A stretch of 45,022 nt of DNA from Candidatus Kaiserbacteria bacterium (GCA_043719825.1 JAYSTK010000019.1:1-45022); one strand, 5' to 3'. Positions 1,187 to 29,097 are shown, counted from the first letter of the stretch. Translations and numbers: made by a program. The notes: generated by a model not told the origin, from the letters alone.

Positions 1187-1190
1187 ACGA

Positions 1191-9986: not shown

Positions 9987-10070
9987 TTACCAGGTCCAGC
10001 GATTCACATTATGAATAGTGAATCGGGACATAAATTCAGAATAGTCATTTCATTCATTTCTTCATTTAGC

Positions 10071-10226: not shown

Positions 10227-10691
10227 ATGTCCTTTTTGCAACGACTCAAAGGGAGGGGTATTCGTACCGAGCAGCGACTCCAATCAAGTGAAGAAGAGAC
10301 GGCGCTTGATAAAATCGTGCAGCTTGATGTGGATGTGTATCAAACCACCGATCTCATCGTTGTGTATGCGCAATCTGCAGGTGCAGAACTCTCGGAGATT
10401 CATGTGTCAATTGAGGGAGATGCCGATGTTGTACTCATAGAGGGAAAGCGCCTTAGACCTGAGCATATTGCTTTTCCAAAGAAAAAGCCTGATGGAGTTT
10501 TTTTTACAGAAGAATGCGTGTGGGGAGATTTCTATAGAAGAATTATACTTCCAGAGAGTATTGATATTACGAAGGCAGAAGCGAAAGTAAAAAATGGTGT
10601 TCTTGTGTTGGTGCTACCACTATTGCGTCCTGAAGAAAAAGAAAAAGTAAGACTTAAGATTCAGCGTGCAAAAGCACCGAGAGGTGGCTGA
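10227..10691 (+). CDS. hsp20: small heat-shock protein, Hsp20/alpha-crystallin family
   Basis: 154 aa. VDVYQTTDLIVVYAQSAG...HVSIEGDADVVLIEGKR...FYRRIILPESIDITKAEAKVKNGVLVLVLP follows the alpha-crystallin domain pattern. TAGAAT at 10213-10218 lies 8 nt before the ATG. Confidence 0.85.
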   Translation: MSFLQRLKGRGIRTEQRLQSSEEETALDKIVQLDVDVYQTTDLIVVYAQSAGAELSEIHVSIEGDADVVLIEGKRLRPEHIAFPKKKPDGVFFTEECVWGDFYRRIILPESIDITKAEAKVKNGVLVLVLPLLRPEEKEKVRLKIQRAKAPRGG

Positions 10692-10710
10692 TAAAATTTC
10701 AAGATATTCT

Positions 10711-12243: not shown

Positions 12244-12263
12244 TTAAGCTCTGAATCCACACC

Positions 12264-12297
12264 TATAGCGCCCGCAGGACACCCTGCGGGCGCTATA
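12264..12297 (+). terminator. GC-rich hairpin terminator
   Basis: TATAGCGCCCGCAGG-ACAC-CCTGCGGGCGCTATA is a perfect 15-bp stem lying 21 nt after the stop. Its 3' arm runs into tandem TATAAT hexamers at 12294-12305. Confidence 0.75.
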
Positions 12298-12305
12298 ATT
12301 ATAAT
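12294..12305 (+). promoter_or_regulatory. tandem -10-like hexamers upstream of the giant gene
   Basis: TATAAT occurs twice, at 12294-12299 and 12300-12305. The ATG at 12325 is 19 nt downstream with no Shine-Dalgarno motif. Confidence 0.35.
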
Positions 12306-12324
12306 CAGCCCGCATTCTATTTGA

Positions 12325-15300
12325 ATGTTGGGGCTGCTTGTTCAATTGAAGAATTTTTACTTTAAAAAAACAAGTAAAGAATTTAAAAAACACATATTTA
12401 GAGCGCTACAATTACCATTAGCGTTTATTCGACGTGTTGAAGCGATTGATTATGAAAACTCATTGTTCGTGAGCTCTGCTTCACACACTAAGTCGTATAT
12501 AACGAAGTTCGTTTTAATATCGATATTTACTGTTGTGCTTTTGAGTACAAGCACCGTTGAGTCACAGTTTTCTTTAACACGCAAGTTAGATACGATTAAT
12601 GTTTTTTCTGAACGAGTAGAGAGTACAACTTGGAAAAATATCGAAGCTTTGTCTGAGCAAAATGTATCTAAAGATGGTTTGTATCAAGAATTTTCAAAAA
12701 ATAATTCTGCATATCGTGACGTTGAAAAAATAATTGATAATTCTTCAAGTACGCAAGAACCGCAACCGAATGAACAAATTATTGACAGTGAAATTGAACA
12801 GCAGCCTATTGATATTCAAGGAGAAGGCACAACTGAAACTTCTTCTCCAGAAATAAATCAAGAAATTAATACTGACACAGAAGCCTCATCTGATATTGAA
12901 AGCGAGTCGTCCACAGACTCAACTAATGAAGCAACGGAATTGCCAACTAATGCAATCGATGAACCGGTTTCACAGAACGAATATACTCCCGCAGAATTTG
13001 GTCTCTTTAAAAAAGTAACTGGTGTTTTTACTTTTGCGCAAGAATCTGTAACAAGCAGTTTAAGTGACAGTGTAAGTGATCAAATTGAAATAGATACTGA
13101 ATCTGAAGAAATCATTACGCCTACTGGAGAATCAATTACAGAAGATATAGACCTCATTGAATCAGCAAGTACAACTGAAGCAGATACCATAAGCATTAAT
13201 GAGAATAGTGATGTGAATGAAACTACGAATGTAGAAGAAAACACAAATACTCTAAACACTGCACACATTACCTTTAGTGATTTTGCACTTCCTAATCTTG
13301 AATCAGGTCAATTTATCACTAATGTGCAATTGCGCATGTCGCTTGCAGCACTTATCACAAGCAATCGCGAAGACTACCCTGTTCTTGATGTTGAATATTT
13401 ACTCAATGAAAAGTGGGAGAATGCAGGTTCCGTTATTCTTGACGGTGAGGTCTCAAATGCTTTAAATGGTGGCTATTATCTTTTTGCATTACCAACATTC
13501 ACTACCGTTGATGAATTAGATTCCTTGAGTGTAAGAATTACAGAGCGTGGGGAACTTTTAGAGGAAGACACTGTATTCATTGATGCGGTGTGGCTCGAAG
13601 TAGATACAGAAACATTTGATCGTGATCTATTGCGAGAACGGTTACTTCCAGAGGTCTTTAAAAAACTTTCTCTTCCAAGGATGCACACGCTCCTCAGTGA
13701 TACGCTCGACTTCTCTCGCGATGATGATCCTGTGTTTGTGCTCCGCTATGAGTCACAGCGAAATGCAGGAGTACGATTCTTAAGAAATATTTTTGGAAGA
13801 AATCTTGCAGAAGTTAAAACGGTTACGTTTGTTCGCAAGGGAGTTGGAATTGTAGATATTGAGCCTCTCGTAGACATGACAAATGAAGGCCTTTGGACTA
13901 TTCAGTTGCCACAAAATGCACAAGATGATTTAGAGCCGGGAACCTACACAATTGAAATTGTTATTGATGAGGGAGGTAAAGTTTTCACTGACTCTCTTGA
14001 TTTTCAATGGGGACTTCTTGCTGTTAATCCACATAAAACTGAATATGAAATTGGTGAAGTAGCGACTATTGCGCTTGCTGCGCTATCACCAAGCGGTAAT
14101 ACACTCTGCGATGCCGAGCTCGCACTGTACATTATCGATCCGCTTGAATATATTCATCGGTCAACAATACAAAAGTCCGGACTTTGTAATGGTAATAATG
14201 TTATTGATGTTCCCGATTATAGTGCGGAATTCACTCCGACTGTGAGTGGGGAATATGAAATGTATGTTGAAAATATTGGTACAAATGGAGAGGTGTTGGC
14301 CCACACCGTAGATACGTTTATGGTGGTAGAGCAACAATCATTTTCTATCACCCGTCAGAGTCAAACAAGAATTTATCCACGGGCAGAATATAGTATGGCG
14401 CTTAGAGTGGAAGCAGAGGATGCGTATGTGGGTGAACTTATGGAACGTGTACCTCGTGATTTCGTAATTGGTGAGACTGATGCGTCTATTACTATGAATG
14501 GTGATATTCAAGAATTGCGTTGGGGTATTTCTCTCAAAGGTGGAATCCCACAGACATTTACCTACTCATATGATGCGCCAGATATTTCGCCCTTCCTCTA
14601 CACACTTGGTCCTGCAGAAATAGGAAATAACACTCAATCTGACGTTGTACCCCAACTCGAAAATACTGCGACCCAGACCCCGTCTTCTGCATTTGAATCA
14701 CCCGTTATAGAAAATGTAATTGATGAAGCTACAGAAATTAATCAACCGCTTCAATTGGAAGATACAGAACCCACTTCTGTACCAGTCCTTAATGAAACCA
14801 CAACGCAACAAGAACCTGAAGAAATAATCGCTCCCGAAACTCCCGAAAGTACTATTCTTCAAAACGAAGATACTTTTGAAACAGTTGCGCCAGAGGAAAA
14901 TGCTTTTGAAATTGTTCCGACACTCGAACAACCTCTCATTGGCGAAGTAACACAGTTGACGCTTACTCCTCTGCCGCAAGCGAATGGATTTATTGAACAT
15001 CGCCGGTGGCAGATTGCGTCAGACGCAACGGGAAGTATGATCGTATTTTGGACTGATGGAGCGAGTATTCCTTCTGGATGGACGTGTATCTCATGTACAT
15101 CAACCAGTACATTTTATCAACGTTTTCCTCTTGGAGGTGCTACCTATGGAACACAAGCTGGTGTTGCTACAACTACACACACTGCAGATGGAGCAGTAAA
15201 TGCGTCGGGACTTTCAAATGCAGAAAGTTTTGGAACTTCGTTTGTAAGCATTAACTCTCACTCCCATACGATTACACCAATAATTGGAAGTACGACAACA

Positions 15301-18300
15301 CTACCCGCATATCGACAACTGCGTGTCATCCAAAATAATAGTGCCGGAAGTCCAGCGACAGTTCCGGCGGGAGCAATTCTTATTTTTGATGGATCACTAC
15401 CTTCTGGCTGGGTCCAGTATACGGACCTCGATAGTCGCTATCCACGCGGTGAAAACGCTATTACGAGTGCGGGTTCAAACACTCATATTCACACTGCTAC
15501 AGCTACCCTAAGCGCAGCTTCGGGTTCCACATATGATTCCCGAACTGGAGGTACTCAGGTCACTGCTGCTGGTATTAATCATACCCATACATTGAGTACA
15601 TCTACCCCTCCGGTCAATCATGAACCTGCATATATGCAAGTAATCTTTGCTACATCGTCAATCGCTACGGCAACACCACTCACAGCAATCGCTCTTTGGA
15701 GCGACACACCTCCCGCTGGATGGCTCAATCGATCTGCACAGCCGACAGACCCATTCTATAATCGCTATATAAAGGGAGGGTCTACATATGGCACTACAGG
15801 TGGAGGAGACTCTCATACACAAGGGAACTTCACTGCATCTTCGAGTGCAGCAGTCGGAACAGACAACGCGAGAACTGGTACAGCAGGTTCTTCAAATACT
15901 CATACGCATGCTATCGATCTTTCCAATTTTTCAACTGCTTCAAATACACCACCTTCCGTAACTGTAATTTATGCAAAATACTATGGACTCGTACCAATTT
16001 ATACTCAATCGGCATTTAGATGGTATGTAAACGCAAATTCCGTATCACCAACTGATGCGTGGCCGACGAGTACGGTAGACGTTCTTGAAAACGAAGCAAT
16101 CGATACATCGTTCACTCCTCTTAAAAATGGTGATGTTCTCCGTCTTCGCCTTCAACTAAATGTTTCAAACTCAACGACAACTGGAGAAGATTTCAAATTG
16201 CAATTTGGCACAACGACTGCACTCTGTACCGCAGTGAGCGCATGGACGGATGTAGGTTCAGCAACGTCTTCAGCAGCATGGATAGGGCACAACAATAGTA
16301 GCCCGAGTGATGGTGCAACGCTTTCAACATCGACTCTTACGGGGACTGATGTTCTCGAAACGTACGAAGAACAAAATCCAACAATAGTTCTTCCCAACGC
16401 AATAGGAATAGGACAAGAGGGGGAATGGGACTTTGTTTTGAAACAAAATGCTGCAAGTCCAAACACAAATTATTGTTTTAGAATGGTAGAAGCTGATGGC
16501 ACTGAATTATTCGCGTATACTCAGTACCCGTTACTTATTACGAATGCACAGCCAAATGCCCCATCGCTCCACGTACTTTTTGATAACGAAAAAGTGAGTA
16601 CGACGACACCTCAATTTGAATTCGCAGGAACTGATGCTGAAGCTGATGATCTTACCTATCAAATTCAAATTGATAGTGATTACACCTTTGGGTCAGTAGA
16701 TGTAGATCGAAATAGTGCATCAAATCCAACACAATTCGCTAATATAATTTCACCAGCTGATAAAAATCCATATACTAACGGAGAAACGATACGGTTCTCA
16801 CTCACTTCAGCTCTTACAAATAACACCACGTACTATTGGCGTGTAAGAACGCAAGACCCAACTGGTTCAAATAATTGGGGATCATGGTCAACGATTTTTA
16901 GTTTTACAATTGATTCATCACTTACGAATAGTGCGTGGTTCCAAACGACAGAGGAACAGTTTGATACGGACACACTTGTTGGAACAGATGCACTCGCAAC
17001 TGATTTGGTACAACTGAGCGTAGGATCAACGACAGGAACGACCACTTCTTCACAAATTGATTTTTTAGACGGCACTGTCGGAAATGCATGGGGGTCACTT
17101 TCTTTTAATGATGATGAGACTGTCGGTGACATCAAGTATCGAATTCAATACTATAGCGATGCCACTGCGAGCTGGGCAAACATTCCTGACATTGATCTTT
17201 CAGGTAATAGTGCGGGATTTGATACTTCTCCAGTTAGTTTGCTCTCTTTAAATACAGATATATATCGACTGATTCGAATTGTTGCCGTCTTTACAAATAG
17301 TGGAGGGAGCCCTCTCTTGTATGATTGGACAATTACGTGGGGGTACCGTATCGAGACACCAACATTAAATTCACCCTTCCCGAATGAAAAAGTAAGTACC
17401 ACAACACCGACATTTGAGTTTGAGACAACTGATCCACAAAGTGATGATCTTGAATATGAAATCCAATGGTCGACCACGTATGCATTTACTGCATCAACAA
17501 CACGGAACTCATCAACAAGTCTTGGCTTTATAAATAGCGAGAATGGTGGAGATACATCACCGTTCACTTCTGGTCAAACGATTCAGTTCACCGTGCAGCC
17601 AGCCGATATACTTACCAATGGCACCACATACTGGTGGCGGGTACGCGCTCGAGATCCCTTAGGTAGTAATCAGTTTTCTCTCTATACAGATCCTCTAAGT
17701 TTTACTGTAGATACTTCAACTTCAGTTTCAACATGGTTCCAAACTACACAATCCCAATTTGAAACAGATGTGCTATCAGGAACAATAGCGCTTGTAACAG
17801 GCTCCGTTACCGTTGCAACGACATCAGACGAAAGTCTTATGGTGTATGCAGAAGGAATTGTTACAACTCCTCGTTACCGTGAATGGGATGGCACTACATG
17901 GAGTAGTGAAGCAAGTGCACTCGGTGTAGGTGCACCCATCAATTGGATAGTCACGAAGGCTTCCCCAATAAAAAATGAATTCATAACAGGAACACTTGGG
18001 ACAGATGCTGATGTTAATATTCAAGTATTTAAAAATGGGTCTTGGGGAAATATTCAAGAAATTACCACCTCAATCCCAAATACCAATATGCGAGGATTTG
18101 ACATTGCATATGAGCAAACTTCAGGTGATGCGCTCGTTGTTGCGTGCGATGGCGACGCTGACCCTTCTTACTATGTGTGGAACGGAAGTGCGTGGGTAAG
18201 TGGTGGCACCATCGATCTAACAGCCGGGAATAGTTGTGGTTGGATAAAGCTTGTGTCGAATCCTACGTCTGATGAAATCATAGTAATCACCCGAGATACT

Positions 18301-21300
18301 TCTGGTACCGCCTATGAAACTCTTGTATGGAGTGGCTCTGCATGGGGAACAAATCGAAAAATATTTGGTTCTATGCAATCTACTCAAGCAAATCATGAAG
18401 GAATTGCAGCAGAATATGAAGAGAGTGGTAATCAGGCAGTTATAGGGGTATCAAACGGTACTGCGTCGAGTTTTATCTGGACCGCATGGGCAAGTGCGAC
18501 GTGGACAGTCCCCGCAGCAGTAGCGCTCGGTGACGATTTTGAATCGGGAACAATTGTAGCTGATGACGGTAGTGATAATTTGGCTCTTTGTTACATTGAT
18601 CACGACAATGATATTGGTGCGGTGCGCTGGACCGGTGCCGCATGGGCGGGTCAAACCGAACTCGAAATCGCATGGGCGGGTACAGACACCGTTTTCAACG
18701 ATCGTCCCGTTGATTGTTCTTTTGAGGTAGGGGGAGCACGTGATGGGTACATTATGGTTGCGTACAGCGACACCACCAATGTTCGACATCGTGCTTGGAA
18801 TGGAACAGCATGGGATGTTGGAGAAACAAACGTTTCAACAATACAAGACGCTCCGCGTGTTCAACTTCGTCGAACGGGAGCAAATCTTATACAGCTTGTT
18901 GCATTCGATGATACAAATGATCGATATGATTATTCGTATTGGAATGGAACGATATGGAATGCATTCCAAACTCTTGAAACAGATGCTTCAGTAGGTGCAA
19001 CTCCTTTTAAGGAGCCGTTCATGAATGCGGTACGAAATCCTGGAATTATAGGTTCTGCAGTTGTTTCTCCCGGAATTGATTTTTATGATGGAAGCGGACC
19101 GTACTGGGCACAGCTTTCGTGGACTGACTCAGAAGCAGGGGGATCAACTGTTTTATACCAAGTTGAATATTACGATGGTGACTCATGGGAGCTTGTTCCA
19201 AATGGTCTCATCCCTGGAAATTCAACAGGAACAACAACAAGTCCCATCAATCTTTCAAATGTTCTTCCTGTTTCAACGTACAACGAGATTCGCCCCGTAG
19301 CTAATCTCACCTGTAATCTCGGTACGTGCCCGTCACTTTCTGATTGGACAGTTACGTGGGCTGCAGGTATATCAATAAGTGGAACAGCACAGGCATATGA
19401 TCAATCGACGAATGTCATCTCGGGTACTGTTGGTGTCTCTCTGAACGGCGTCCTTCAAGTAGGGAAAACAGGCACAATTTCAGGCGGTGTCTGGTCAATT
19501 GCAAATGTAAACGCAGCGCCAGGTGATATTGTTTCAGTCTTTGTAAATGGGGCAAATGATATTAATGAAGCAGTCTCTGTGACACGTTACGATGGTATTG
19601 GTGACATTACCGGAATGCGACTCTACGAACGCCATCTTGCACTCGGATCCAATGATGCAACTTCTACCCCATTTACGAATGCAGAGATTGGACTATATGA
19701 TTTTACAAATGATGAGGACATTTTCTTTGATCTTTCAGGTACTGTACTCACCCTCTGTGCCGACGTTGGATGTGGAGATGTTGAGTTGTATACGGCGAGC
19801 ACTACTATCTACCGTCCTCAAGGTACTGTCGTAACTCATGACATTGAAATCAATGGAACCTTTAGACCTGAAGGAAATACGATCTACTTGAGTGGCTCGT
19901 GGGACAATAATGGCACCACAACATCAGCGACATCGACCGTTGTATTTACTGCTACATCCACAAATGAAACTATTGATGAAACGTCAGCTATTTCTCCATC
20001 ATTTTACAATCTTACGTTCGGTACGACGACCGGTAATGCTACGTGGACACCGATAACAGCGCTTGATGTTAATGGAGCATTGAGTATTACAAGAGGGACA
20101 TTCTCGCGTGCGAGCGTGAATCTCAATATAGCGGGCAATACATTTGTGGGTGTAAATGGATTTATAACGGGTGTTGGTACGACTACGTTTGATGGAACAG
20201 GCACTGCAATATATACGGACAGCAATGCAGTCACTCAAAATATTGGGCGCATAGTCGTCGATGGAACATCAAAAACACTTCAACTCGGTAGCGCCGCTCT
20301 CATGCAGTCAATCAACATTGGAAGCGATGATATTTTAGATGTATCAACATCAAATTATAGCCTTACCGTTCTGACCAATTTTATAAATAGCAACACGTAT
20401 GTCGCTCGAAGTGGTACGACAACGTTTGCGGGTACGACAACTAATCTCACTATAACTGCAGGGGGAGATGCATTCTACAACCTCGCATTCACGGGTGCGG
20501 GTGGCTCGTGGTCTTTCACTGAGGGAGATTTAAGTATCGGAAATGACTTTGTCATGAGTACCGGTACTATCACTATGCCCACAGGGACAACGACTGTCAC
20601 GGGAACCTTTGCAAACAACGGTGGAACATTTGCGCACAATAACGCTACTGTTGTTTTCGATTCTGCATTGTCTGAGACGGTGACACTTCTTGGTACTGCT
20701 TTTACGAACGCTTTCTATAATGTGCGGTTTTCGGGAAGTGGGAGTTGGGTATTTACTGAAAGTAACGCAACAACATCAAATGATTTCCGTATTACGCAAG
20801 GTACCGTTGTACTTCCTTCGAGTACACTCGCGATTGGAGGTCACTTTGCGAATAGTGCAGGTACATTTGCCCACAATAATGCCACTGTTCGATTTACGAG
20901 CAGTAGTGCAAAAACTATCGACACCAATTCATCGTTCAACCACCTTACCTTTGTCGGAAGTGGAAGTTGGTCATTTATTGATACAAACGTTACTGCACTC
21001 GAGGATGTTTCAATTAGTAACGGTACAGTCACGTTCCCCTCAAATACGTTTACAATAGGTGGCTCGCTCATAAATAGCTCCACGCTTACTCACAATAGTG
21101 GCACGGTACTATTCAATTCAATTGATAGTGGTGAAACGATTGCACTGGGCAATTCTCCATTACACAATCTCTTAATTAATAGTGGGACAGGTGGGTGGAC
21201 AGTGAGCACTCATGCAACAACAACGGGAAGTACAACACTCACGTCTGTAGGTTCATTCACCGTTACTTCTGGTCAAACACTTTCCGTGGGTGGCGTCTTT

Positions 21301-24300
21301 ACGAATAGCGTAGGAGGAGCTTCAACTACATGGACGGGCTCAACGCTTTCGCTTGAGTCTGGTGCGTATTCCATAAATTTAAAAACATCCGGTGCAGATG
21401 CGTACAATATTTTGAGAGTTAAGGCGAATACCGATATTAAAATGTGGAACTCAAGTGCGTCTTCGTATACCATAGACAGTACTGGCTCGCTTTATTCACA
21501 AGACCATTCTGCAGTTGATGGTGACCTGTATATATTTGGCGGATACGAACGCACATCAGGAACCGAGTACTGGAGCTACGCTACAGACTTTGATGGAACA
21601 AGCCTCGGAACCTCAAGCAGACAAGTTGATGTGCGCTTTGCTTCAGGAGCAAATGCGACATTTACGGGAAGTGTATTCACGGTGATGGGAACAACGACGG
21701 GTACTACTACAATTCGAAATCAGGGAAGTGGTACGTACACACTTTCAGTTTCAGGAGGTACCTCAACAGCATCCTATTATGATTTTGGTGACCTTGGACT
21801 CACCGGAGTAAGTCTTCAAGATGCGACAAAAGTAACATCCTTCGGCAATGGACGATTTGCTCCAGGTATAAATACCGGGACAGGCCTCACTGTTTCATCA
21901 TCAACGATTGATGTTAATGCTGGCCTCCAAATATTTGGAGTGGAGTTTAGTACAACGACTGCAATTACGGCGACGAATGTCACGCAAACTGGAGGAGTGC
22001 CTCTATCGTATTGGTGGTTCAGAAATAGTGCTGGAAATATTGACGGAGAAGCATTCGATAGTGATACGGGAGATCCGGGATCTGTACGATGGGATGATAG
22101 TTCACTTTCAATTACAGTTTCAGGTATTGTCTATGATGACGATGAAACAACACCTCTTGGCGCTCCAACGTGCGGTGTAGGAGGGACTCCTGTGCGTATT
22201 GTCGTTGAAAATGGAGGAACATACGATGGTGCGTGTGATGGAAGTGGAGTGTTTACTATCCCTGGCGTTGTAATTGTCGGAGACCCAACACTTACTGTTT
22301 TCCTCAACGGGGCAGGAGGAGGTAAAAAAGCGGTTACAGTCACAAAAACTCCTACAGAAAATATTACCGATCTCAATCTTATTGTAGGGCGTGTCATTAC
22401 GCGTCATGAAGACACGAGTGCTCTTACCATTGAAGACATGGCAACGTATGACAGCACGGATGATGGCGATATACCCTTTACTGCAGCTACAGGGACGTCA
22501 CCACTTCTTACCGTACATGCCGACAATGAGCTTCATATTGCATCAACAACTACGTTTGCTCCTGCGGGCACAGTTACAGTTATCGGGGGCGGTACAGGAA
22601 ATACCTTTGATGGCTCACTACATATCGGAGCTAATGCAACGTTTACGGGTGCCGGAACGACAACCTATTCGATAGGTGGGTCACTTCTCCAAAATAATGG
22701 TGGCGTATTTTCTCCTGCTTCAAGCACAATACTCATGACCGCTACCACAACAGGTAAAGGCGTCTCTTCGGTGGCGGGAGAGACTATATATGTAAACGAA
22801 CTCCAGTTCTCTGGAGTAGGTGGTGGCTGGAACCAAACGGGAACACTTTCGAGTACAGGAAACATTTACCTCGCAACGGGAACACTCACGGGTACAGGAA
22901 ACATTACGCTTACGAACGGTTCATTCTATGGAAATGGTTTGCTCTCACTTGGAAGTGGCACGACGACACTTTCAGTCACCAATACCCTCGGTGGTACACA
23001 AGCATGGACATTTGGAAATCTTGTTCTCGGTACAGGGAGCACAACAGGAACAACGACACCTGCGACTAATGCAACAACGACTGTCCTCGGCAAACTCACA
23101 ATTGGGACGGGTCATTTTTTTGGAATTCAAGGCGGCGTCTTAGATCTTCAAGGCTCAGGACTCGTGTTTGTGGAAAATGGAAATTTTGTTGAGGGGACGA
23201 GTACGGTACGGTACAGCGGGACACAAGGTTCTCAAGTGCTTTCGACGAATTACTATAACCTCGTCGTCCAGGCACTTGGTGGTTCTCCAACATACACAGG
23301 TACAGGAATCGGTATTTCTGTATTAAATAATCTCACTGTTGGCGGTACGAACACGACGACTTTAACACTCAACACAAATGATCCAGCACTTGATGTAAAT
23401 GGAAATGTTTCAGTTTTAACAAACGGAACATTGGTAGGAAGTAACAGCGCAATATTCAATGTGGCTGGAAGTTGGGATAATGATGGTACCTATACGGGAA
23501 GCGGCGGTACGGTAACATTTGATGGAAGTGGTATTCACGCAATTGCTCCAGGAAGTTCGGCGTTTAGTAACGCAGTGGTAAATGCAACGGGCAACTATAC
23601 CCTTACTGAATCTGCGACGGCTACAGCAGCTTTCACCATTACCACAGCGAATGATTTTATTGTTTCAAACAATGTATCTCTTGCAATAGGTGGCACATTC
23701 ACGAATTCGCTCGGTGGCGCAGATACGGTATGGAATAGTTCCACGCTTTACTTATATGGAGGAGGTGACTACCAAATTAATGCTTCGACAACGAGTGATA
23801 CTTATAGCAAACTTTCACTCGGTACCAGCACTCAAATTCGCATGTGGAATTCTTCTGCGTCTTCTACTGATCTTGCAAGTACTGCCTCACTCTATTCACA
23901 AGATCATGGAAATAGTAATGGTGATCTTTATGTGTACGGAAGTTATATTAAAATAAGTGGTACCGATTACTGGAGCTACGCAACTGATTTTGACGGGACG
24001 ATTCTTAATGGGACTGAAAGGCAGGTAGATGTTCGCATTGCATCAAACGGAAGTATGCTTTACACCGGAGGTGGGTTGGCGGTTGTTGGTGTAAATACTG
24101 GGTCTACCACAATCCAAAATCAAGGAAGTGGAACATACAGTTTCCGTATTGGAGGCACCGCCTCAACAACATGGTCTTATTACGACCTCGCTCACACAAA
24201 TGCAAGTGGCTTAACATTCTCAGGAACACCGAGTGTGACAAATCTTTCATACGGTAACTTCACACTTGGTATTGCGAGTGGTACCGCGCTTACCGTAGGT

Positions 24301-27300
24301 GGAAGTGTTATTGACCAGAATCCGGCAAAAACATTTACGAATAATAATTTTAGTACATCGACAGGAGTATCTGGCTTCAACGTAACCGCCACAAGTACAA
24401 CAGTGAGTTCGTGGCGATTTACAAACCATAGTGGCTCGATAGACGGAGAATCATATGATTTTGATCCTGATGGTGATCCTGGATATATCGTATGGGACGA
24501 TAGCAGTGCGTCACTTTCATTCTCTGGTCGTGTGTATAGTGATGAAGGTACTACAGCGAGTGGTGTGGGAATATGTAACGGTGTAATGCAGTCAGTCACC
24601 CTCCGCGTCGCTGGATTGACAACGTATACAACTGACTGTGATCTCGGTACTGGTGCATACTCAATTTCGGGTATTACCTACAGCCCGGGGGATTCATTTG
24701 TGGTATACCTCACTCCTCCCGGAGCTGAACGAGGTTCGACGGTTTCGGAAGACCCTGTCACAAGTATTGGCAATCTCGATATCTATGAGAACCGAGTCAT
24801 TGTTCGACACGAAAGTTCTGACCCTCTTTCGATTGCAGATATGTCACTCTGGGATTCAAGTGATGATGCAAATATTCCCTTCACGGCTATTGATGCCTCG
24901 CCCGATACACTTACGCTTCCCGCAAACAGAAAACTGCTTGTATGGACCGGAAAGGAATTTGAGCCAAATGGAAACGTAACCGTCTCGGGAGGTGGGGCAG
25001 GCACTGCATATGACGGTACCCTTGAGCTTTTTGCAAATGCTATCTTCGACGCAACAGGGAGTGAAGTACATACGATTGGTGGCAACCTCATTATGGGTAC
25101 CGGCGCAACATTCGATGACGAAACCTCTGCTTTCACGTTCACGACGACTGGAGCTTCGCGCACGATTGATACAAACGACCAGAGTTTCTACAATCTCACA
25201 ATAAACGGAAGTGGTAGCTTTACGACTCCGAATGCTGTCTTCGATATTGGAAACGATTTCACCCTTACGCAAGGCACTGTAACGCTACCAACAGGCACTA
25301 CGACTGTAGCAGGGTCATTCCTTAATACAGGGGGTACGTTCATTCAAAATGGAGGTCACATGAGATTTACGGGTTCATCTGCAAAATCTATCCGCGCGGG
25401 CAGCTCATCATTCGGGACAACAACATTTGCGGGGACAGGAACCTATACGTACCTTAGTACGAATGCAACGACGACAGGTGACTTTACAATTCTCAGTGGA
25501 ACGGTAAGCGCACCTACGGGGACTCTTTCAATTGGCGGTGATTTTACGAACATGGGAATTTACACCCACAATAGTGGAATTATTAAAATGACGTCAGCCT
25601 TAGCCTCAACAACAATTGCTGCAAGTTCCTCTGATCTAGGTTCCCTTACGATTGCTGGCGCCGGGACGTTCTCAATGACGAATACAAATAGCACACTTGC
25701 GGGAACACTCTCAATTCAACAAGGAGCACTTACGCTTGCATCCGGGACTCTTTCAGTAGGTGGTTCATTCCTCAATACGGGGGGATCCTTTGCACATGCA
25801 AGTGGTACCATTCTCTTTAATTCTGCGGATACCGGCGAGAGTATTAATGGTGGAACTTCTGAGTTTAATATTATTTCTATAGCAGCGCCGAGTGGTGGAT
25901 ATACCATTACAGGGAACGCAACGACAACGGGCAATTTTTCATTAACAAGTGCTACACAATTCACACTACAAAATGGTTTGATATTAAATGTTGGAAGAGT
26001 ATTTACTAATCTGGTTGGAGGAGCAGCGACTACATGGACAGGATCCACTATTAAATTAGGATCAGGATCCTCGTATACGGTAAATTCTAAAACTACGGGT
26101 AGTGACGTATACAATGTCATTGCACTAAGGGGAAATACCGATATTCGACTTTGGAATAGTAGCGCGACAACAACACTTCTCGACTCACTGAGCTCACTAT
26201 ATTCTCAAGACAATGCTGCGATTGATGGTGAGTTATACATATATGGAGATTATTCACGCACCACAGGAGCTGACTATTGGAGTTATGCCACTGACTTTGA
26301 CGGTACGAGTATTTCAACTTCAAGTCGAGCAGTTACCGTACGACACGCGAGCGGAGCAACAAGTACATTTTCAGGAGGAACATTGAGCATAATTGGTGCA
26401 GCGAATGCAACCACAACAATTACGAATCAAGGGAGTGGGACATATGCAATGGGAGTCTCCGGCGGAACACTTAGTGCGCTCAATTACGCATTCCGAAATT
26501 CCAATGCCACAGGCCTCTCGCTTTCGGGTACCACAACAGTAACATCCATTGCAAATGGCGATTTCGAACTTGCACTGAACGGTGGTTCACTTCTTACGGT
26601 AAGTTCTACTACAATAAATTACAACGCGTCGATGGTCGTTTCAGGAATGCGCTTCGCTACAACATCGGTCATTTCTGGCACAAATATTAGCGTTGTAGGC
26701 ACAACACCTTCGTCATGGACATTTACGACTCATCGAGGGAATCTTGCTGGAGAATCCTACGACAACGACGGAATAGATGCGTGTGGTTCAATACGCTGGA
26801 GTGATAGTGCATGTTTATTGACTCAACAATCTGCATACCGTTGGCGCCAAAACAATGGTGGCGAAGGTGTGCCTGACAGTGAATGGTTTGATACAAGCTG
26901 GTCAAAACGAAAACGAATAACGGTTACGAATAGTGATGCAATAGGGTACACCAATGCCGTTGTTGAAGTTACCATTCCCTATGATAGTGACATGCAAACA
27001 GACTTTGATGACCTGCGTGTGACAAATGGTGGCGGCACTACCACACTTAATTTTGCTCGTGAGATTTATACGGCAAGTACCGAAGCGACAATTTGGGTAA
27101 AGATTCCAATACTCGCCACTTCAACGGAGACAGATGTATATGTGTATTACGGAAATGGAGGAGCGACGTATGGAGGAGTGGGCACCTCGACATTCAGTGT
27201 GTATGATGACTTTGAAGATGATAATATCACTGAATACAGCGGAGACACCACTCTGTTCAATGTTGGTACGGCGTATGCATATCAAGGAACATATGGTCTT

Positions 27301-29097
27301 GATGCGTCTGGAAACGAAACTAACAAAACAATTGATGGTATATATCGGACCAGCGTAACCGTGAGTCAAGGAGAAACCATTCGCTTTCTACAAAACATTA
27401 GTGCGGCAGGCACGCTTGATGAAGTATGTACGCTGTTTGGAGTTCAATCGCCGGGATCGAATAACAATAACTATGCCATTTGTCTTGAGCAGGTAGCAGG
27501 AACAGATCGTATGAGTATTGCAGAGAACGTTCAAAGTTCTGATTCTGACGGAACCGGTGTTGTTCTCGCTTCAACAACCGTGGCATACTCACCTGGATGG
27601 TACGAAGTTGAAATTCGATGGGGCACAAACAATACAATATTAGCGACTCTATATGATAGTAGTGATGTATTTGTTGCATCAACATCAGTCGTCGACACTT
27701 CGTACACCTCGGGAGGTATTGGATTTACCTATTGGTTCCAAAGCGGTGGATGGGATCATTACACATCGAGAGCACTATTAGCAACTGAACCTACTGCAAC
27801 CTTAGGTTTTGAACAGGGTCGGGGTGGTGCATCGTGGCTCGCTGCGCTTAACACAAAAGCAAGTGGCGTAGCCGCCGGCACAATTATTCGACCTCGATTT
27901 GTTATTGAAAATACAGGGCTTCAAGTAATCGATGCATACCGACTCATGTATGCAGACAAAGGTGCTTCACCAAGCTGTGAAGCAGTGAGTTCGGGATCAT
28001 ATTCTGCAGTGCCATTACAAGCTTCATGTACTGGATCTCCTCTTTGTATGCAAGCGTCAACGCATTTTGTAAATAATGCATCAACGACCGATGTGCTTGG
28101 TGGTGCTGGTACATTTACTCAGGGGCAGATAATTGAAGATCCTTCAAACACAACTCAAAATATTACAATTCCGAGTTCGAGCTATACGGAGGTTGAATAT
28201 TCAATTACTGTTACGAATGATGCCGTTGCACCGAATTACTGTTTACGTGTAAGCGATAATGGAACAGATATTGATTCATATACTCGTGTAGCAGAACTAG
28301 AACTTGTCTTTGTTCCAAATATTACTGCACTTTCATTAAATGCAGGGAATGACATTATTCTTTTACCGGGTGTAACGACAACCATATATGCTACAGGAAC
28401 AGTTACTGATCAAAATGGATACGCTGATATTGTATTAGCGACAACTACCATGTTCCGTTCTGGTGTAGGAGAAAGTTGTTCCGTTAACACTAACAATTGT
28501 TATATTGCGGGTCCATCGCGATGTTCATACTCCAATTGTTCTGGCGATTCATGTAATATTTCATGTACAAGTGATTTCTATTTCCATACAGATCCGACGG
28601 ATACAGGAAGTACGTTTGATGCAGAAACATGGAGAGCACTTCTAAGAATAGAAGACCAAGGTGGTAGCTTCGCGACCGCTACAGCTCCATCAATTGACCT
28701 CATAACACTCCGAGCACTTGATGTAAATAGTTTGATTAATTATGGTTCACTCGAAGTTAATGCAAATACTGGTTCTTACAATGCCTCGACAACATTCCAA
28801 AATCTTGGTAATGACTCGATTGATGTAGCCATAGAAGGCACCAACCTTTCAGATGGTGTTTCTTCAGCAATTCCAGTAAATGAGCAAATATTTGCTACAT
28901 CCACATTTACGTATAGCGCATGTGTGTTCTGTACGGCGCTTTCGGCTTCGTCCACAAACTATGAGCTTGATCTCACGAAGCCCGCATCAACGACTCCCCC
29001 CGTGACCGACGATGTATTTTGGGGAATTGAAATTCCGTTCGGCATTTCTGCCGCACCTCACCAGGGTACTAACATCTTCTACGCAATTAGTGACTAG
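12325..29097 (+). CDS. giant (5590 aa) membrane-anchored multidomain surface protein
   Basis: A single uninterrupted ORF with an N-terminal TM (FVLISIFTVVLLSTS, about 12507-12560) and acidic low-complexity stretches. It then carries three tail-collar-like modules, two FN3-like modules with a YYWRVR/YWWRVR strand, eight W-x-G-x-x-W repeats and long G-x-F-x-N..GTF-x-HN..TV-x-F solenoid repeats. DUF2341-like sequence (WSKRKRITVTN...DDLRVTN...IWVKIP...VYVYYGNGGA) is at 26881-27180, followed by a LamG-like region. The C-terminal module is shared with 34748-36580. Confidence 0.9.
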   Translation: MLGLLVQLKNFYFKKTSKEFKKHIFRALQLPLAFIRRVEAIDYENSLFVSSASHTKSYITKFVLISIFTVVLLSTSTVESQFSLTRKLDTINVFSERVESTTWKNIEALSEQNVSKDGLYQEFSKNNSAYRDVEKIIDNSSSTQEPQPNEQIIDSEIEQQPIDIQGEGTTETSSPEINQEINTDTEASSDIESESSTDSTNEATELPTNAIDEPVSQNEYTPAEFGLFKKVTGVFTFAQESVTSSLSDSVSDQIEIDTESEEIITPTGESITEDIDLIESASTTEADTISINENSDVNETTNVEENTNTLNTAHITFSDFALPNLESGQFITNVQLRMSLAALITSNREDYPVLDVEYLLNEKWENAGSVILDGEVSNALNGGYYLFALPTFTTVDELDSLSVRITERGELLEEDTVFIDAVWLEVDTETFDRDLLRERLLPEVFKKLSLPRMHTLLSDTLDFSRDDDPVFVLRYESQRNAGVRFLRNIFGRNLAEVKTVTFVRKGVGIVDIEPLVDMTNEGLWTIQLPQNAQDDLEPGTYTIEIVIDEGGKVFTDSLDFQWGLLAVNPHKTEYEIGEVATIALAALSPSGNTLCDAELALYIIDPLEYIHRSTIQKSGLCNGNNVIDVPDYSAEFTPTVSGEYEMYVENIGTNGEVLAHTVDTFMVVEQQSFSITRQSQTRIYPRAEYSMALRVEAEDAYVGELMERVPRDFVIGETDASITMNGDIQELRWGISLKGGIPQTFTYSYDAPDISPFLYTLGPAEIGNNTQSDVVPQLENTATQTPSSAFESPVIENVIDEATEINQPLQLEDTEPTSVPVLNETTTQQEPEEIIAPETPESTILQNEDTFETVAPEENAFEIVPTLEQPLIGEVTQLTLTPLPQANGFIEHRRWQIASDATGSMIVFWTDGASIPSGWTCISCTSTSTFYQRFPLGGATYGTQAGVATTTHTADGAVNASGLSNAESFGTSFVSINSHSHTITPIIGSTTTLPAYRQLRVIQNNSAGSPATVPAGAILIFDGSLPSGWVQYTDLDSRYPRGENAITSAGSNTHIHTATATLSAASGSTYDSRTGGTQVTAAGINHTHTLSTSTPPVNHEPAYMQVIFATSSIATATPLTAIALWSDTPPAGWLNRSAQPTDPFYNRYIKGGSTYGTTGGGDSHTQGNFTASSSAAVGTDNARTGTAGSSNTHTHAIDLSNFSTASNTPPSVTVIYAKYYGLVPIYTQSAFRWYVNANSVSPTDAWPTSTVDVLENEAIDTSFTPLKNGDVLRLRLQLNVSNSTTTGEDFKLQFGTTTALCTAVSAWTDVGSATSSAAWIGHNNSSPSDGATLSTSTLTGTDVLETYEEQNPTIVLPNAIGIGQEGEWDFVLKQNAASPNTNYCFRMVEADGTELFAYTQYPLLITNAQPNAPSLHVLFDNEKVSTTTPQFEFAGTDAEADDLTYQIQIDSDYTFGSVDVDRNSASNPTQFANIISPADKNPYTNGETIRFSLTSALTNNTTYYWRVRTQDPTGSNNWGSWSTIFSFTIDSSLTNSAWFQTTEEQFDTDTLVGTDALATDLVQLSVGSTTGTTTSSQIDFLDGTVGNAWGSLSFNDDETVGDIKYRIQYYSDATASWANIPDIDLSGNSAGFDTSPVSLLSLNTDIYRLIRIVAVFTNSGGSPLLYDWTITWGYRIETPTLNSPFPNEKVSTTTPTFEFETTDPQSDDLEYEIQWSTTYAFTASTTRNSSTSLGFINSENGGDTSPFTSGQTIQFTVQPADILTNGTTYWWRVRARDPLGSNQFSLYTDPLSFTVDTSTSVSTWFQTTQSQFETDVLSGTIALVTGSVTVATTSDESLMVYAEGIVTTPRYREWDGTTWSSEASALGVGAPINWIVTKASPIKNEFITGTLGTDADVNIQVFKNGSWGNIQEITTSIPNTNMRGFDIAYEQTSGDALVVACDGDADPSYYVWNGSAWVSGGTIDLTAGNSCGWIKLVSNPTSDEIIVITRDTSGTAYETLVWSGSAWGTNRKIFGSMQSTQANHEGIAAEYEESGNQAVIGVSNGTASSFIWTAWASATWTVPAAVALGDDFESGTIVADDGSDNLALCYIDHDNDIGAVRWTGAAWAGQTELEIAWAGTDTVFNDRPVDCSFEVGGARDGYIMVAYSDTTNVRHRAWNGTAWDVGETNVSTIQDAPRVQLRRTGANLIQLVAFDDTNDRYDYSYWNGTIWNAFQTLETDASVGATPFKEPFMNAVRNPGIIGSAVVSPGIDFYDGSGPYWAQLSWTDSEAGGSTVLYQVEYYDGDSWELVPNGLIPGNSTGTTTSPINLSNVLPVSTYNEIRPVANLTCNLGTCPSLSDWTVTWAAGISISGTAQAYDQSTNVISGTVGVSLNGVLQVGKTGTISGGVWSIANVNAAPGDIVSVFVNGANDINEAVSVTRYDGIGDITGMRLYERHLALGSNDATSTPFTNAEIGLYDFTNDEDIFFDLSGTVLTLCADVGCGDVELYTASTTIYRPQGTVVTHDIEINGTFRPEGNTIYLSGSWDNNGTTTSATSTVVFTATSTNETIDETSAISPSFYNLTFGTTTGNATWTPITALDVNGALSITRGTFSRASVNLNIAGNTFVGVNGFITGVGTTTFDGTGTAIYTDSNAVTQNIGRIVVDGTSKTLQLGSAALMQSINIGSDDILDVSTSNYSLTVLTNFINSNTYVARSGTTTFAGTTTNLTITAGGDAFYNLAFTGAGGSWSFTEGDLSIGNDFVMSTGTITMPTGTTTVTGTFANNGGTFAHNNATVVFDSALSETVTLLGTAFTNAFYNVRFSGSGSWVFTESNATTSNDFRITQGTVVLPSSTLAIGGHFANSAGTFAHNNATVRFTSSSAKTIDTNSSFNHLTFVGSGSWSFIDTNVTALEDVSISNGTVTFPSNTFTIGGSLINSSTLTHNSGTVLFNSIDSGETIALGNSPLHNLLINSGTGGWTVSTHATTTGSTTLTSVGSFTVTSGQTLSVGGVFTNSVGGASTTWTGSTLSLESGAYSINLKTSGADAYNILRVKANTDIKMWNSSASSYTIDSTGSLYSQDHSAVDGDLYIFGGYERTSGTEYWSYATDFDGTSLGTSSRQVDVRFASGANATFTGSVFTVMGTTTGTTTIRNQGSGTYTLSVSGGTSTASYYDFGDLGLTGVSLQDATKVTSFGNGRFAPGINTGTGLTVSSSTIDVNAGLQIFGVEFSTTTAITATNVTQTGGVPLSYWWFRNSAGNIDGEAFDSDTGDPGSVRWDDSSLSITVSGIVYDDDETTPLGAPTCGVGGTPVRIVVENGGTYDGACDGSGVFTIPGVVIVGDPTLTVFLNGAGGGKKAVTVTKTPTENITDLNLIVGRVITRHEDTSALTIEDMATYDSTDDGDIPFTAATGTSPLLTVHADNELHIASTTTFAPAGTVTVIGGGTGNTFDGSLHIGANATFTGAGTTTYSIGGSLLQNNGGVFSPASSTILMTATTTGKGVSSVAGETIYVNELQFSGVGGGWNQTGTLSSTGNIYLATGTLTGTGNITLTNGSFYGNGLLSLGSGTTTLSVTNTLGGTQAWTFGNLVLGTGSTTGTTTPATNATTTVLGKLTIGTGHFFGIQGGVLDLQGSGLVFVENGNFVEGTSTVRYSGTQGSQVLSTNYYNLVVQALGGSPTYTGTGIGISVLNNLTVGGTNTTTLTLNTNDPALDVNGNVSVLTNGTLVGSNSAIFNVAGSWDNDGTYTGSGGTVTFDGSGIHAIAPGSSAFSNAVVNATGNYTLTESATATAAFTITTANDFIVSNNVSLAIGGTFTNSLGGADTVWNSSTLYLYGGGDYQINASTTSDTYSKLSLGTSTQIRMWNSSASSTDLASTASLYSQDHGNSNGDLYVYGSYIKISGTDYWSYATDFDGTILNGTERQVDVRIASNGSMLYTGGGLAVVGVNTGSTTIQNQGSGTYSFRIGGTASTTWSYYDLAHTNASGLTFSGTPSVTNLSYGNFTLGIASGTALTVGGSVIDQNPAKTFTNNNFSTSTGVSGFNVTATSTTVSSWRFTNHSGSIDGESYDFDPDGDPGYIVWDDSSASLSFSGRVYSDEGTTASGVGICNGVMQSVTLRVAGLTTYTTDCDLGTGAYSISGITYSPGDSFVVYLTPPGAERGSTVSEDPVTSIGNLDIYENRVIVRHESSDPLSIADMSLWDSSDDANIPFTAIDASPDTLTLPANRKLLVWTGKEFEPNGNVTVSGGGAGTAYDGTLELFANAIFDATGSEVHTIGGNLIMGTGATFDDETSAFTFTTTGASRTIDTNDQSFYNLTINGSGSFTTPNAVFDIGNDFTLTQGTVTLPTGTTTVAGSFLNTGGTFIQNGGHMRFTGSSAKSIRAGSSSFGTTTFAGTGTYTYLSTNATTTGDFTILSGTVSAPTGTLSIGGDFTNMGIYTHNSGIIKMTSALASTTIAASSSDLGSLTIAGAGTFSMTNTNSTLAGTLSIQQGALTLASGTLSVGGSFLNTGGSFAHASGTILFNSADTGESINGGTSEFNIISIAAPSGGYTITGNATTTGNFSLTSATQFTLQNGLILNVGRVFTNLVGGAATTWTGSTIKLGSGSSYTVNSKTTGSDVYNVIALRGNTDIRLWNSSATTTLLDSLSSLYSQDNAAIDGELYIYGDYSRTTGADYWSYATDFDGTSISTSSRAVTVRHASGATSTFSGGTLSIIGAANATTTITNQGSGTYAMGVSGGTLSALNYAFRNSNATGLSLSGTTTVTSIANGDFELALNGGSLLTVSSTTINYNASMVVSGMRFATTSVISGTNISVVGTTPSSWTFTTHRGNLAGESYDNDGIDACGSIRWSDSACLLTQQSAYRWRQNNGGEGVPDSEWFDTSWSKRKRITVTNSDAIGYTNAVVEVTIPYDSDMQTDFDDLRVTNGGGTTTLNFAREIYTASTEATIWVKIPILATSTETDVYVYYGNGGATYGGVGTSTFSVYDDFEDDNITEYSGDTTLFNVGTAYAYQGTYGLDASGNETNKTIDGIYRTSVTVSQGETIRFLQNISAAGTLDEVCTLFGVQSPGSNNNNYAICLEQVAGTDRMSIAENVQSSDSDGTGVVLASTTVAYSPGWYEVEIRWGTNNTILATLYDSSDVFVASTSVVDTSYTSGGIGFTYWFQSGGWDHYTSRALLATEPTATLGFEQGRGGASWLAALNTKASGVAAGTIIRPRFVIENTGLQVIDAYRLMYADKGASPSCEAVSSGSYSAVPLQASCTGSPLCMQASTHFVNNASTTDVLGGAGTFTQGQIIEDPSNTTQNITIPSSSYTEVEYSITVTNDAVAPNYCLRVSDNGTDIDSYTRVAELELVFVPNITALSLNAGNDIILLPGVTTTIYATGTVTDQNGYADIVLATTTMFRSGVGESCSVNTNNCYIAGPSRCSYSNCSGDSCNISCTSDFYFHTDPTDTGSTFDAETWRALLRIEDQGGSFATATAPSIDLITLRALDVNSLINYGSLEVNANTGSYNASTTFQNLGNDSIDVAIEGTNLSDGVSSAIPVNEQIFATSTFTYSACVFCTALSASSTNYELDLTKPASTTPPVTDDVFWGIEIPFGISAAPHQGTNIFYAISD
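15031..15987 (+). repeat. three tandem ~100-aa phage-tail-collar-like (MdpB-like) modules inside the giant CDS
   Basis: The units are about 15031-15350, 15364-15660 and 15675-15987. Each starts I/L-x-F/W-x-(D/G)..P-(S/A)-GW, carries HxH motifs (SHSHT; NTHIHT and NHTHT; DSHT and NTHTHA), and ends in a PAY/PPS + hydrophobic strand (LPAYRQLRVIQ, EPAYMQVIFA, PPSVTVIYAKY). Confidence 0.55.
17884..18960 (+). repeat. eight ~50-aa W-x-G-x-x-W repeats (beta-propeller-like) inside the giant CDS
   Basis: The motifs are WDGTTW 17884, NGSWGN ~18034, WNGSAW 18178, WSGSAW 18328, WTAWASATW 18478, WTGAAW 18628, WNGTAW 18795 and WNGTIW 18939. The spacing is about 150 nt throughout. Confidence 0.6.
19340..26790 (+). 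repeat. three tandem protein-level super-repeats (about 2.7, 2.4 and 2.3 kb) inside the giant CDS
   Basis: The anchor YWSYATDFDGT occurs at 21568, 23968 and 26275. The anchor DPG(S/Y)(V/I)(R/V)WDDSS / GSIRWSDSA occurs at 22072, 24475 and 26776. LYSQD(H/N)...GDLY-x-(F/Y)G and QNQGSGTY blocks recur in the same order. The nucleotide sequences are diverged. Confidence 0.7.

Follow-up and report, generated by a model that had tools for sequence, protein, structure and literature searches.

We know of no account of how most bacteria in the CPR (the candidate phyla radiation, also called Patescibacteria) outside Saccharibacteria find and hold their hosts, and CPR bacteria are generally held to have no outer membrane. 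A 45,022-nucleotide (nt) stretch of DNA from a Candidatus Kaiserbacteria bacterium (GCA_043719825.1, JAYSTK010000019.1:1-45022), analysed over its full length and called here the window, puts this question in concrete form: what is the purpose of a single open reading frame (ORF) that starts with ATG at 12325, runs on the plus strand to 29097, encodes 5,590 amino acids (aa) and takes up 37% of the window? A sequence-only reading had proposed that the product is a rigid, membrane-rooted fibre and a plausible host-contact organelle. We find that the giant ORF is a genuine, intact gene with an architecture conserved among its relatives, and that it joins a phage-type receptor-recognition module to a long repeat shaft. 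On this basis we consider it probable, and the best of the available explanations, that the giant protein is a Sec-exported surface fibre serving the recognition of, and adhesion to, a host or partner cell.

The window holds no N, and the only stop in the translation of the giant ORF is the terminal one. Its internal protein repeats are just 30–57% identical (self-BLAST), the longest direct DNA repeats within it span 31–41 nt at 73–90% identity and Tandem Repeats Finder reported no tandem repeats inside it. Scanning GTDB representative genomes with aa 2250–2900 of the giant protein returned nine orthologous loci, from Kaiserbacteria, Paceibacterota or Parcubacteria metagenome-assembled genomes (MAGs). 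Single stop-to-stop frames occupy the same position in L076 (5,633 aa), L077 (5,574 aa) and L078 (6,130 aa), and those of L082 and L075 measure at least 5,983 and at least 4,718 aa, respectively. The full-length alignment is collinear from end to end and almost gap-free, with 100-aa blocks that are 45–75% identical; two acidic spacers (8–32% identity, large gaps) are the exceptions. Among database proteins, P0114 (5,625 aa) matches giant aa 8–5590 in one high-scoring segment pair at 58% identity, and P0139 (MEX0931679.1, 5,649 aa) has every module of the giant protein; ‘DUF2341 domain-containing protein’ is the sole source name found for a full-length member (MEX0931679.1). Because independent MAGs hold collinear single ORFs in the same gene neighbourhood, we effectively exclude an assembly artefact or a pseudogene, and the earlier description of one uninterrupted 5,590-aa frame stands. 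Conservation of an intact 17-kb frame across several lineages implies strong selection. The UmuC protein encoded near the giant gene has its closest relatives in Candidatus Kaiserbacteria/Paceibacterota MAGs (59% identity), which places the window in a Patescibacteria/CPR genome, in keeping with the small-genome symbiont that the sequence-only reading had supposed.

The link to recognition comes from three tandem HxH repeats of ~114 aa each (aa 889–1230; 14989–16014, plus strand), characterized with alignment A2, AlphaFold2 (AF2), Foldseek and hhalign and here called the triplet. Every repeat contains P-x-G-W, YG-x-TGG, HTH ... HTH and PPY motifs, of which the HxH motifs may be counterparts of the metal-binding HxH sites of T4 fibres. 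In hhalign, the triplet profile aligned all three repeats with aa 373–788 of Pas29 (Prob 99.2%, E 2.9e-19) and with aa 733–1149 of Pas28 (Prob 99.0%, E 4e-18), both proteins of the Actinoplanes phage phiAsp2. The AF2 model of the triplet, compared with BFVD in Foldseek, retrieved the same two proteins (Pas28, E 8e-14; Pas29, E 2e-11; TMq 0.57–0.59, with 0.59 for Pas28) along with a ‘Phage tail collar domain containing protein’ (E 9e-5, TMq 0.38). GenBank describes Pas29 as a ‘possible receptor recognizing protein; contains HXHY motifs; similar to phage TuIa tail fiber’. These phage receptor-recognition proteins, of tail-fibre type, are homologues of the triplet; the earlier label ‘tail-collar-like’ gains some support from structure and profile, and a host-contact role for the giant protein is plausible.

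Phage HxH fibres (Pas28 and Pas29 of phiAsp2, the T-even gp37/gp12 type and Collar) resemble the triplet in their three tandem repeats and their P-x-G-W, GG-x-x-HTH and HTH...PPY motifs, and differ from it in that the module of the giant is embedded in a 5,590-aa cellular protein rather than a virion protein. The model has a mean predicted local distance difference test (pLDDT) score of 76 and a predicted template-modelling score (pTM) of 0.73, with cores above 90 and low-scoring loops between the His motifs; the pTM suggests a single packed unit made of the three repeats, and it is tempting to think of a one-chain imitation of a trimeric fibre knob. Free-standing triplet proteins of 400–570 aa also exist. 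One of them, the 484-aa P0102 (L085, 8001–9455), is built of the triple HxH module and lies in a cluster with Peptidase_M73 (TasA/camelysin), signal peptidase S26 and a CARDB/HD protein; the L085 genome encodes PAS/GAF sensors and is unlike CPR in appearance, so the module may be used in a fibre context on the surface of other bacteria as well.

Comparison with 34 relatives of at least 3,000 aa showed which parts of the giant protein are fixed. The shaft (aa 2350–4830), the DUF2341 region and the C-terminal module (C-module; aa 5296–5590) are present in ~31 of them, the triplet in ~9 and a region of W-x-G-x-x-W repeats that is propeller-like in its periodicity in ~14; relatives without the triplet carry other inserts in its place, including DUF2341 + Laminin_G_3 units. 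This census reveals a conserved chassis with swappable N-proximal cassettes, and the triplet and the propeller-like region are optional cassettes of that kind. The chassis comprises an N-terminal module (N-module), beta-sandwich and FN3 modules, the shaft of ~2,500 aa with its three ancient super-repeats, DUF2341 plus a LamG-like domain, and the C-module; into it, in this protein, the triple HxH repeat and a propeller-like module of ~8 W-x-G-x-x-W units are inserted. That the chassis tolerates module insertion is indicated by an insert of about 550–700 aa near the triplet/sandwich junction in L078 (~3875–6949) and by about 300–350 aa extra in each of two shaft segments of L082 (~12284–18367), one additional DUF2341 included. 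The conserved part of the giant protein is its C-terminal ~2,700 aa, C-module included. The last 761 aa have 62 homologues at 41–66% identity, nearly all from Paceibacterota or Kaiserbacteria, for the close ones of which ‘DUF2341 domain-containing protein’ is again the sole source name. Lectin-type modules (DUF2341 with Laminin_G_3) are a theme of the family, as the sequence-only reading had sensed, but its placing of them at the distal end is doubtful, since the variable cassettes (triplet, propeller-like region, extra DUF2341/LamG) occupy the N-proximal third and either end may be the distal one. With optional cassettes of this sort, determinants of host range might be predicted from metagenomes.

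The N terminus has the layout of an export signal (12325–12579, plus strand; hydropathy and charge scan), shared with eight orthologues: a KR-rich n-region of 56 aa, a hydrophobic segment at aa 57–80 (12493–12564) and then TVES|QF. In 19-aa windows across the whole giant protein (mean Kyte–Doolittle >1.6), aa 57–80 is the only segment that resembles a transmembrane (TM) helix. A small-x-small motif follows the hydrophobic core by about 5–12 residues in 8/8 orthologues (VES|Q, IYA|S, VYA|N, SQA|E and VLA|D are examples), from which it follows that the segment may be a long cleavable signal peptide rather than a signal anchor. The proposed membrane root is thus doubtful: the single hydrophobic segment is where it was said to be, but it may be a cleaved signal peptide. 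The protein is rich in T (14.4%), S (10.9%), G (10%) and Asn, poor in K (1.2%) and strongly acidic (563 D+E versus 209 K+R), and its 34 Cys are mostly locally paired, a pattern expected of extracellular disulfides. The hydrophobic segment after the KR-rich region, the paired Cys, the D+E excess and the exported-type neighbours together argue that the giant protein is extracellular.

Two acidic spacers, found where they had been described, flank the N-module. Spacer 1 (aa ~130–310; 12712–13254, plus strand) and spacer 2 (aa ~795–888; 14707–14988, plus strand) were delimited by composition, the former per 50 aa, and show DE fractions of up to 0.32 with KR at 0. Spacer 1 is of low complexity, rich in S/T/N/E/D/I and devoid of K/R, and is the least conserved part among orthologues; spacer 2 is absent or gapped in L077 and L078.

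We therefore picture the giant protein, conditionally, as a long-reach fibre on the cell surface, strongly acidic, disulfide-paired and by a rough estimate ~100 nm long, in which the cassettes and lectin-type modules would bind surface polymers of a host or partner cell much as phage tail fibres do, the repeat shaft would serve as spacer and the C-module would supply a function common to thousands of surface proteins, for example attachment to the producer’s envelope or docking to the partner. A syntenic MacB-type ABC transporter and a C-module paralogue may take part. Two orientations can be envisaged. An N-terminal membrane root with a wall-spanning linker would fit the acidic spacer beside the hydrophobic segment, and the opposite orientation, with the C-module as base, would fit the motifs of cleavage type, the placing of the variable cassettes near the N terminus and the universal C-module.

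Several observations weigh against this recognition fibre. The triplet matched nothing in Pfam (E up to 5, Collar PF07484 included) or PHROGs, nothing in phage genomes or IMG/VR by tblastn and, as a model, nothing in the PDB by Foldseek, so it departs from the phage fibres in lacking both a Collar or PHROG match and any BLAST-level likeness to phage genomes. The model of the C-terminal 761 aa found only generic multi-Ig chains in the PDB (Foldseek, TM <0.2). Domain-by-domain annotation, which had been proposed as a check on the unusual domain mix, had Pfam and NCBIfam recognize nothing beyond DUF2341 and the FN3-like modules, and phmmer and profile searches of PDB sequences with six regions gave no significant match; for about 80% of the giant there is no Pfam, NCBIfam or PDB-sequence match, and the solenoid and propeller folds named here are predictions from periodicity. 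One related Paceibacterota MAG (L074, GCA_041389025.1, positions 1–12952) has the orthologous gene in three collinear ORFs, and another (L073, GCA_041389005.1, positions 1–12994) has it shattered into many small ones. This could be decay, in which case the gene may be dispensable there, or indel errors of those assemblies. Finally, repeat number is fixed with 1:1 orthology; many adhesins vary their copy number, and constancy of this sort suits a structural or machine-like role just as well.

The remaining modules fill in the chassis. The N-module (aa 310–790; 13252–14694, plus strand), a conserved globular region that the sequence-only reading took for ‘Ig-like’, is 36–54% identical to its orthologues and is common to 39 other proteins of 630–1,850 aa; several mid-size proteins pair it with the C-module around differing middles. 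Its sole Pfam match was a weak one to Y_Y_Y (E 0.023), and a PDB-sequence profile search gave none. Beta-sandwich 1 (aa 1225–1412; 15997–16560, plus strand), running from FRWYVNAN to YCFRMV, is 44–64% identical in orthologues and matched nothing in Pfam. A second copy, RPRFVIENTG ... YCLRVS (27793–28317, plus strand; from the AF2 model and hhalign to sandwich 1), had been recognized in the sequence-only reading, and hhalign confirms that the sandwich at aa ~5182–5331 is a remote homologue of the first (Prob 93.9%, E 1.6e-7). Two FN3/Ig-like modules follow sandwich 1 (within aa 1413–1831; 16561–17817, plus strand; self-BLAST and Pfam). Their duplication is evident from the 49% identity of aa 1413–1565 to aa 1679–1831, and their class from Ig_Rha78A_N at 16597–16908 (E 6e-9), which matches in 5/5 orthologues; Ig_J_second was also found. 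A domain of ~100 aa after the first of these modules (aa 1575–1676) recurs at aa 2248–2349 with 42% identity.

Between these copies lies the W-x-G-x-x-W region (aa 1835–2250; 17827–19074, plus strand; motif positions and autocorrelation), with ~8 units and a period of ~50 aa. The eight repeats claimed for it resolve into six canonical motifs, at aa 1854, 1952, 2002, 2102, 2158 and 2206, and two degenerate ones that visual inspection of the translation placed near aa 1905 and 2050. The autocorrelation has its peaks at lags of 50, 100–103 and 150, a periodicity that would suit a beta-propeller; searches of Pfam and PDB sequences gave no match for this region.

The shaft itself measures ~2,480 aa (19372–26814, plus strand; self-BLAST, iterated hidden Markov model (HMM), alignment A7 and autocorrelation). 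Its unit of ~76 aa (about 4 × 19–20 aa) occurs in 13 copies in three arrays (aa 2510–2964, 3437–3764 and 4242–4532), each followed by a highly conserved block of ~330 aa with many invariant D, H, Y and W; an array and its block make up one super-repeat, of which there are three. Accordingly, aa 2902–3283, 3711–4084 and 4469–4833 match one another at 41–57% identity, and aa 3207–3495 matches aa 4008–4288. The repeats correspond 1:1 in orthologues (41–82% identity), each super-repeat having its own orthologue in the relatives. Pfam offered no family covering the shaft of the giant or of four orthologues, the sole significant match being DUF2341 in one of them, and profile searches of PDB sequences found no relative; NCBIfam TIGR02601 ‘autotrns_rpt’ matched below its cutoff (E 0.005, 16.7 bits versus 19.85). 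Three super-repeats are thus present as the sequence-only reading had it, and its ‘solenoid’ and ‘rigid’ draw on periodicity, autocorrelation lags of 20 and 75–80 being consistent with a predicted beta-solenoid.

Beyond the shaft, DUF2341 (PF10102; aa ~4893–4969; 27001–27231, plus strand) is recognized by Pfam with E 1.8e-15 and 55–58 bits against a gathering cutoff of 23.4, overlapping the interval in which it had been suspected (26881–27180) with a shift of about 50–120 nt. Next comes a jelly-roll-sized domain of ~200 aa (27184–27786, plus strand), all-beta with ~13 strands in the AF2 model. It is LamG/ConA-like by context: Laminin_G_3 (PF13385) stands alongside DUF2341 in distant homologues and in the cassettes of relatives. 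For the earlier ‘LamG-like region’, AF2 thus predicts an all-beta domain, and no Pfam LamG match was found in the giant. AF2 predicts the last 761 aa as a chain of roughly six all-beta domains (pLDDT 92.2).

The C-module (28210–29094, plus strand) is Cys-rich, ends ...YWGIEIP...GTNIFYAISD and is predicted to be all-beta, with about two sandwich-sized domains by strand pattern; C90, C97, C110, C119, W271 and G272 are invariant in its alignment (A8). A module shared with the ORF at 34748–36580 had been noted, and BLASTP bears this out (giant aa ~5301–5587 versus aa 277–602, 27% identity, E 4e-21). When 1.84 billion cluster representatives (clusters at 50% identity) were searched with a profile built on the last ~290 aa, 2,379 of them matched with E no higher than 1e-3 and 1,020 with E no higher than 1e-30. 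Among the 150 best matches, the module ends no more than 12 residues from the C terminus in 142, and 25 are proteins of 5,000 aa or more. Protein lengths run from 263 to 7,696 aa, the minimal proteins consisting of a signal peptide and the C-module alone. The C-module thereby defines a very large family that searches of Pfam, NCBIfam and PDB sequences fail to match. Its identification as ‘WxL-like’ is not supported: Pfam (E up to 5) gave no family in the C-module of the giant, and none of the 12 C-modules of A8, those of the giant and 11 homologues, had a WxL match, and a WxL cell-wall-binding domain was accordingly rejected. A Pam-pilin domain was likewise rejected, with no NCBIfam CPR_Pam_pilin_C match for the giant or the ORF at 34748–36580, and hhalign found the C-module unrelated to a Pam-pilin-like ORF of the window (Prob 0.1%). 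Sortase anchoring was discarded too, the giant having neither LPXTG nor a C-terminal hydrophobic or TM segment. The sole WxL-system-related signal in the window is elsewhere, in a secreted 356-aa ORF (4924–5994) that matches Pfam WxLIP_PGBD, the domain that binds peptidoglycan in WxL-interacting proteins, below the threshold (E 2e-4, 21.8 bits versus 27.3).

A bolder extension, which we offer tentatively and consider rather doubtful in its entirety, would make the C-module a hitherto undescribed C-terminal domain for sorting, anchoring or assembly across the CPR, acting like LPXTG, the C-terminal domain of the type IX secretion system or a pilin docking domain, and tagging thousands of surface proteins of 260–7,700 aa to be attached or assembled at the cell surface. 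The giant would then be a fixed-length chassis on which phage-derived receptor-binding cassettes are swapped to shift host specificity, a cellular counterpart of a phage tail fibre, and the syntenic MacB-type ABC transporter and the 610-aa paralogue would take part.

The same ubiquity can be turned to a different account, in which the giant protein is a component of the envelope or coat (S-layer-like or a surface scaffold), tied by the N-terminal TM segment and the C-module, and no host adhesin. The fixed, gap-free architecture with 1:1 repeat orthology and the minimal signal-plus-C-module proteins would sit well with it; cohesin and dockerin proteins in the island suggest a self-assembling scaffold, and the neighbour at 36692–37630 has a weak S-layer-type NCBIfam match. 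We nevertheless judge a coat function unlikely, because target recognition, more typically than a lattice, would call for a phage-type triplet and swappable lectin-type cassettes, and the giant gene looks lost or broken in some relatives.

If the triplet does the targeting, the ~330-aa blocks of the shaft might do the damage: a tailspike-like depolymerase or attack protein would use them as a lyase or hydrolase to open the host envelope. The homology to phage receptor-recognition proteins and the many invariant D, H, Y and W of the blocks are compatible with this, and a link to cell-wall degradation has been drawn for giant proteins in predatory Omnitrophota (bioRxiv 10.1101/2023.11.21.568195). 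An enzyme of this kind is quite unlikely in our view, however, as Pfam and NCBIfam returned no lyase, hydrolase, Beta_helix or other enzymatic match for the giant and four orthologues, and the PDB-sequence profile search was empty. Improbable, too, is a role for the giant as tip or cargo in a polymeric filament, with the C-module polymerizing or docking, the minimal C-module proteins forming the fibre and giant members joining it by way of that domain. The position of the C-module at the extreme C terminus of proteins of such different lengths, a second C-module protein conserved in the locus, the TasA/camelysin and signal-peptidase cluster around P0102 and two Pam-pilin-like ORFs in the window lend it some colour, but the C-module shows no relationship to the Pam-pilin-like ORF in hhalign, AF2 folds it without a partner strand (pLDDT 58–97, mostly >70) and no neighbour is chaperone- or usher-like. 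That the long ORF is an assembly artefact, chimera or pseudogene made from collapsed or mis-joined repeats is effectively refuted, for all the internal repeats and the split or fragmented region in L074 and L073, by repeats too divergent and too short for it (at DNA level the longest is 41 nt at 76–83% identity, and none is tandem) and by the same collinear single ORF in at least four independent assemblies plus P0114 and further database proteins.

With the recognition fibre as the preferred reading, we place the giant family among the giant surface fibres and adhesins of bacteria. Giant DUF2341- or FhaB-containing proteins of Patescibacteria have been counted but left uncharacterized, and were described as lacking full-length homologues and as shaped by rapid domain shuffling (PMC11809585); ours shares with them phylum, size class (>4,000 aa) and DUF2341, and differs in that its family is strictly collinear across MAGs. 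DUF2341 has been linked to PilY-like tip adhesins (PMC4858521), and a 2026 preprint on the CPR Pam pilus describes a conserved ‘tail fibre-like protein’ near pam operons and notes the lack of an outer membrane. The literature we found contains no description of this collinear giant family, its phage-related triplet, its propeller-like region, its shaft or its C-module family.

Among better-known systems, the giant adhesins of monoderms (Ebh/Embp, SasG, the 7,651-aa protein of Mobiluncus and Giant1-5 of Apilactobacillus) offer an export signal, a long, repetitive, beta-rich stalk, the rank of largest gene in a small genome and a presumed role in cell–cell contact. The giant differs from them in having no LPXTG or C-terminal TM segment, a C-terminal module of a different, unannotated family and a few ancient repeats of fixed number in place of many near-identical Ig repeats. 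RTX adhesins (LapA, SiiE and MpIBP) are comparable as giant acidic adhesin-like proteins beside an ABC transporter and with a conserved C-terminal region, whereas the giant has an N-terminal Sec-type signal, its transporter is of MacB/FtsX rather than HlyB type and Pfam found no RTX repeat (HemolysinCabind) in it; an identity as an RTX substrate of a type I secretion system was rejected on the last two counts. Autotransporter and two-partner secretion adhesins (FhaB, pertactin and Pmp) share a G/T/N/S-rich periodicity of ~19–20 residues and recall the sub-threshold TIGR02601 match, and differ in that the giant has no two-partner secretion domain, no beta-barrel translocator and no Pfam family on its shaft.

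The giant gene stands in a conserved run of genes. A cohesin-domain protein (10666–12243, plus strand; Pfam Cohesin, E 4.5e-6) is encoded directly upstream and has orthologues of 55–61% identity ahead of the giant gene in L076, L077, L078, L081, L082 and L083; an exact look-up of this protein returned no record. Directly downstream is an FN3/Pur_ac_phosph_N-repeat protein (29387–30916, plus strand; Pfam, with orthologues in L073–L078), and beyond it come the MacB-type ABC transporter (31201–34679, plus strand; Pfam, with the ATPase at 31201–32523 and the MacB_PCD/FtsX permease at 33471–34679) and the 610-aa C-module paralogue with its signal/TM segment (34748–36580, plus strand; BLASTP, with syntenic orthologues in L073 and L074). 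The order of the transporter genes, with the C-module paralogue downstream of them, is kept in L073 and L074. As a whole the conserved order reads FGE-sulfatase-like ORFs, dockerin protein, HSP20, cohesin protein, giant gene, FN3 protein, ABC ATPase, MacB/FtsX permease, 610-aa C-module protein, a 312-aa protein and a DUF4215/Big_6/dockerin protein. Nearly every neighbouring ORF has a signal peptide or a TM segment, and several contain cohesin, dockerin, FN3 or Ig domains. Four ORFs are cohesin-like (10666–12243, 40558–41586, 41564–43321 and 43987–44727) and three bear a dockerin (8115–9986, 37635–38759 and 43987–44727), nearly all with signal peptides, which suggests a cohesin–dockerin-type surface assembly around the giant gene. 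A consensus scan found no terminator-like site upstream of the giant gene; a GC-rich hairpin is visible at ~12265–12300.

Other features of the window touch the giant gene less directly. The paralogues at 3562–4821 and 39135–40286 (55% identical, both with signal peptides) have C termini that span positions 2–148 of the 148 of NCBIfam CPR_Pam_pilin_C at 21–22 bits against a cutoff of 55 (E ~2e-4), and they may be remote relatives of Pam pilins in a genome of Paceibacteria type, whereas reports of Pam pilins come mainly from Saccharimonadia and Microgenomatia. An insertion of ~950 nt (32523–33471) separates the ABC ATPase gene from the MacB permease gene, where the gap in L074 is 214 nt. It contains a minus-strand ORF of 144 aa (32818–33252) with no Pfam match, together with an inverted repeat whose arms are ctagagcatagaaatttg, at 32521, and caaatttctatgctctag, ending at 32647. 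At the left of the island (1191–3381 and 6370–8040) are a UmuD-like (Peptidase_S24) and UmuC (IMS family) pair and tandem FGE-sulfatase-domain paralogues, the latter 42% identical to each other and both with N-terminal hydrophobic segments.

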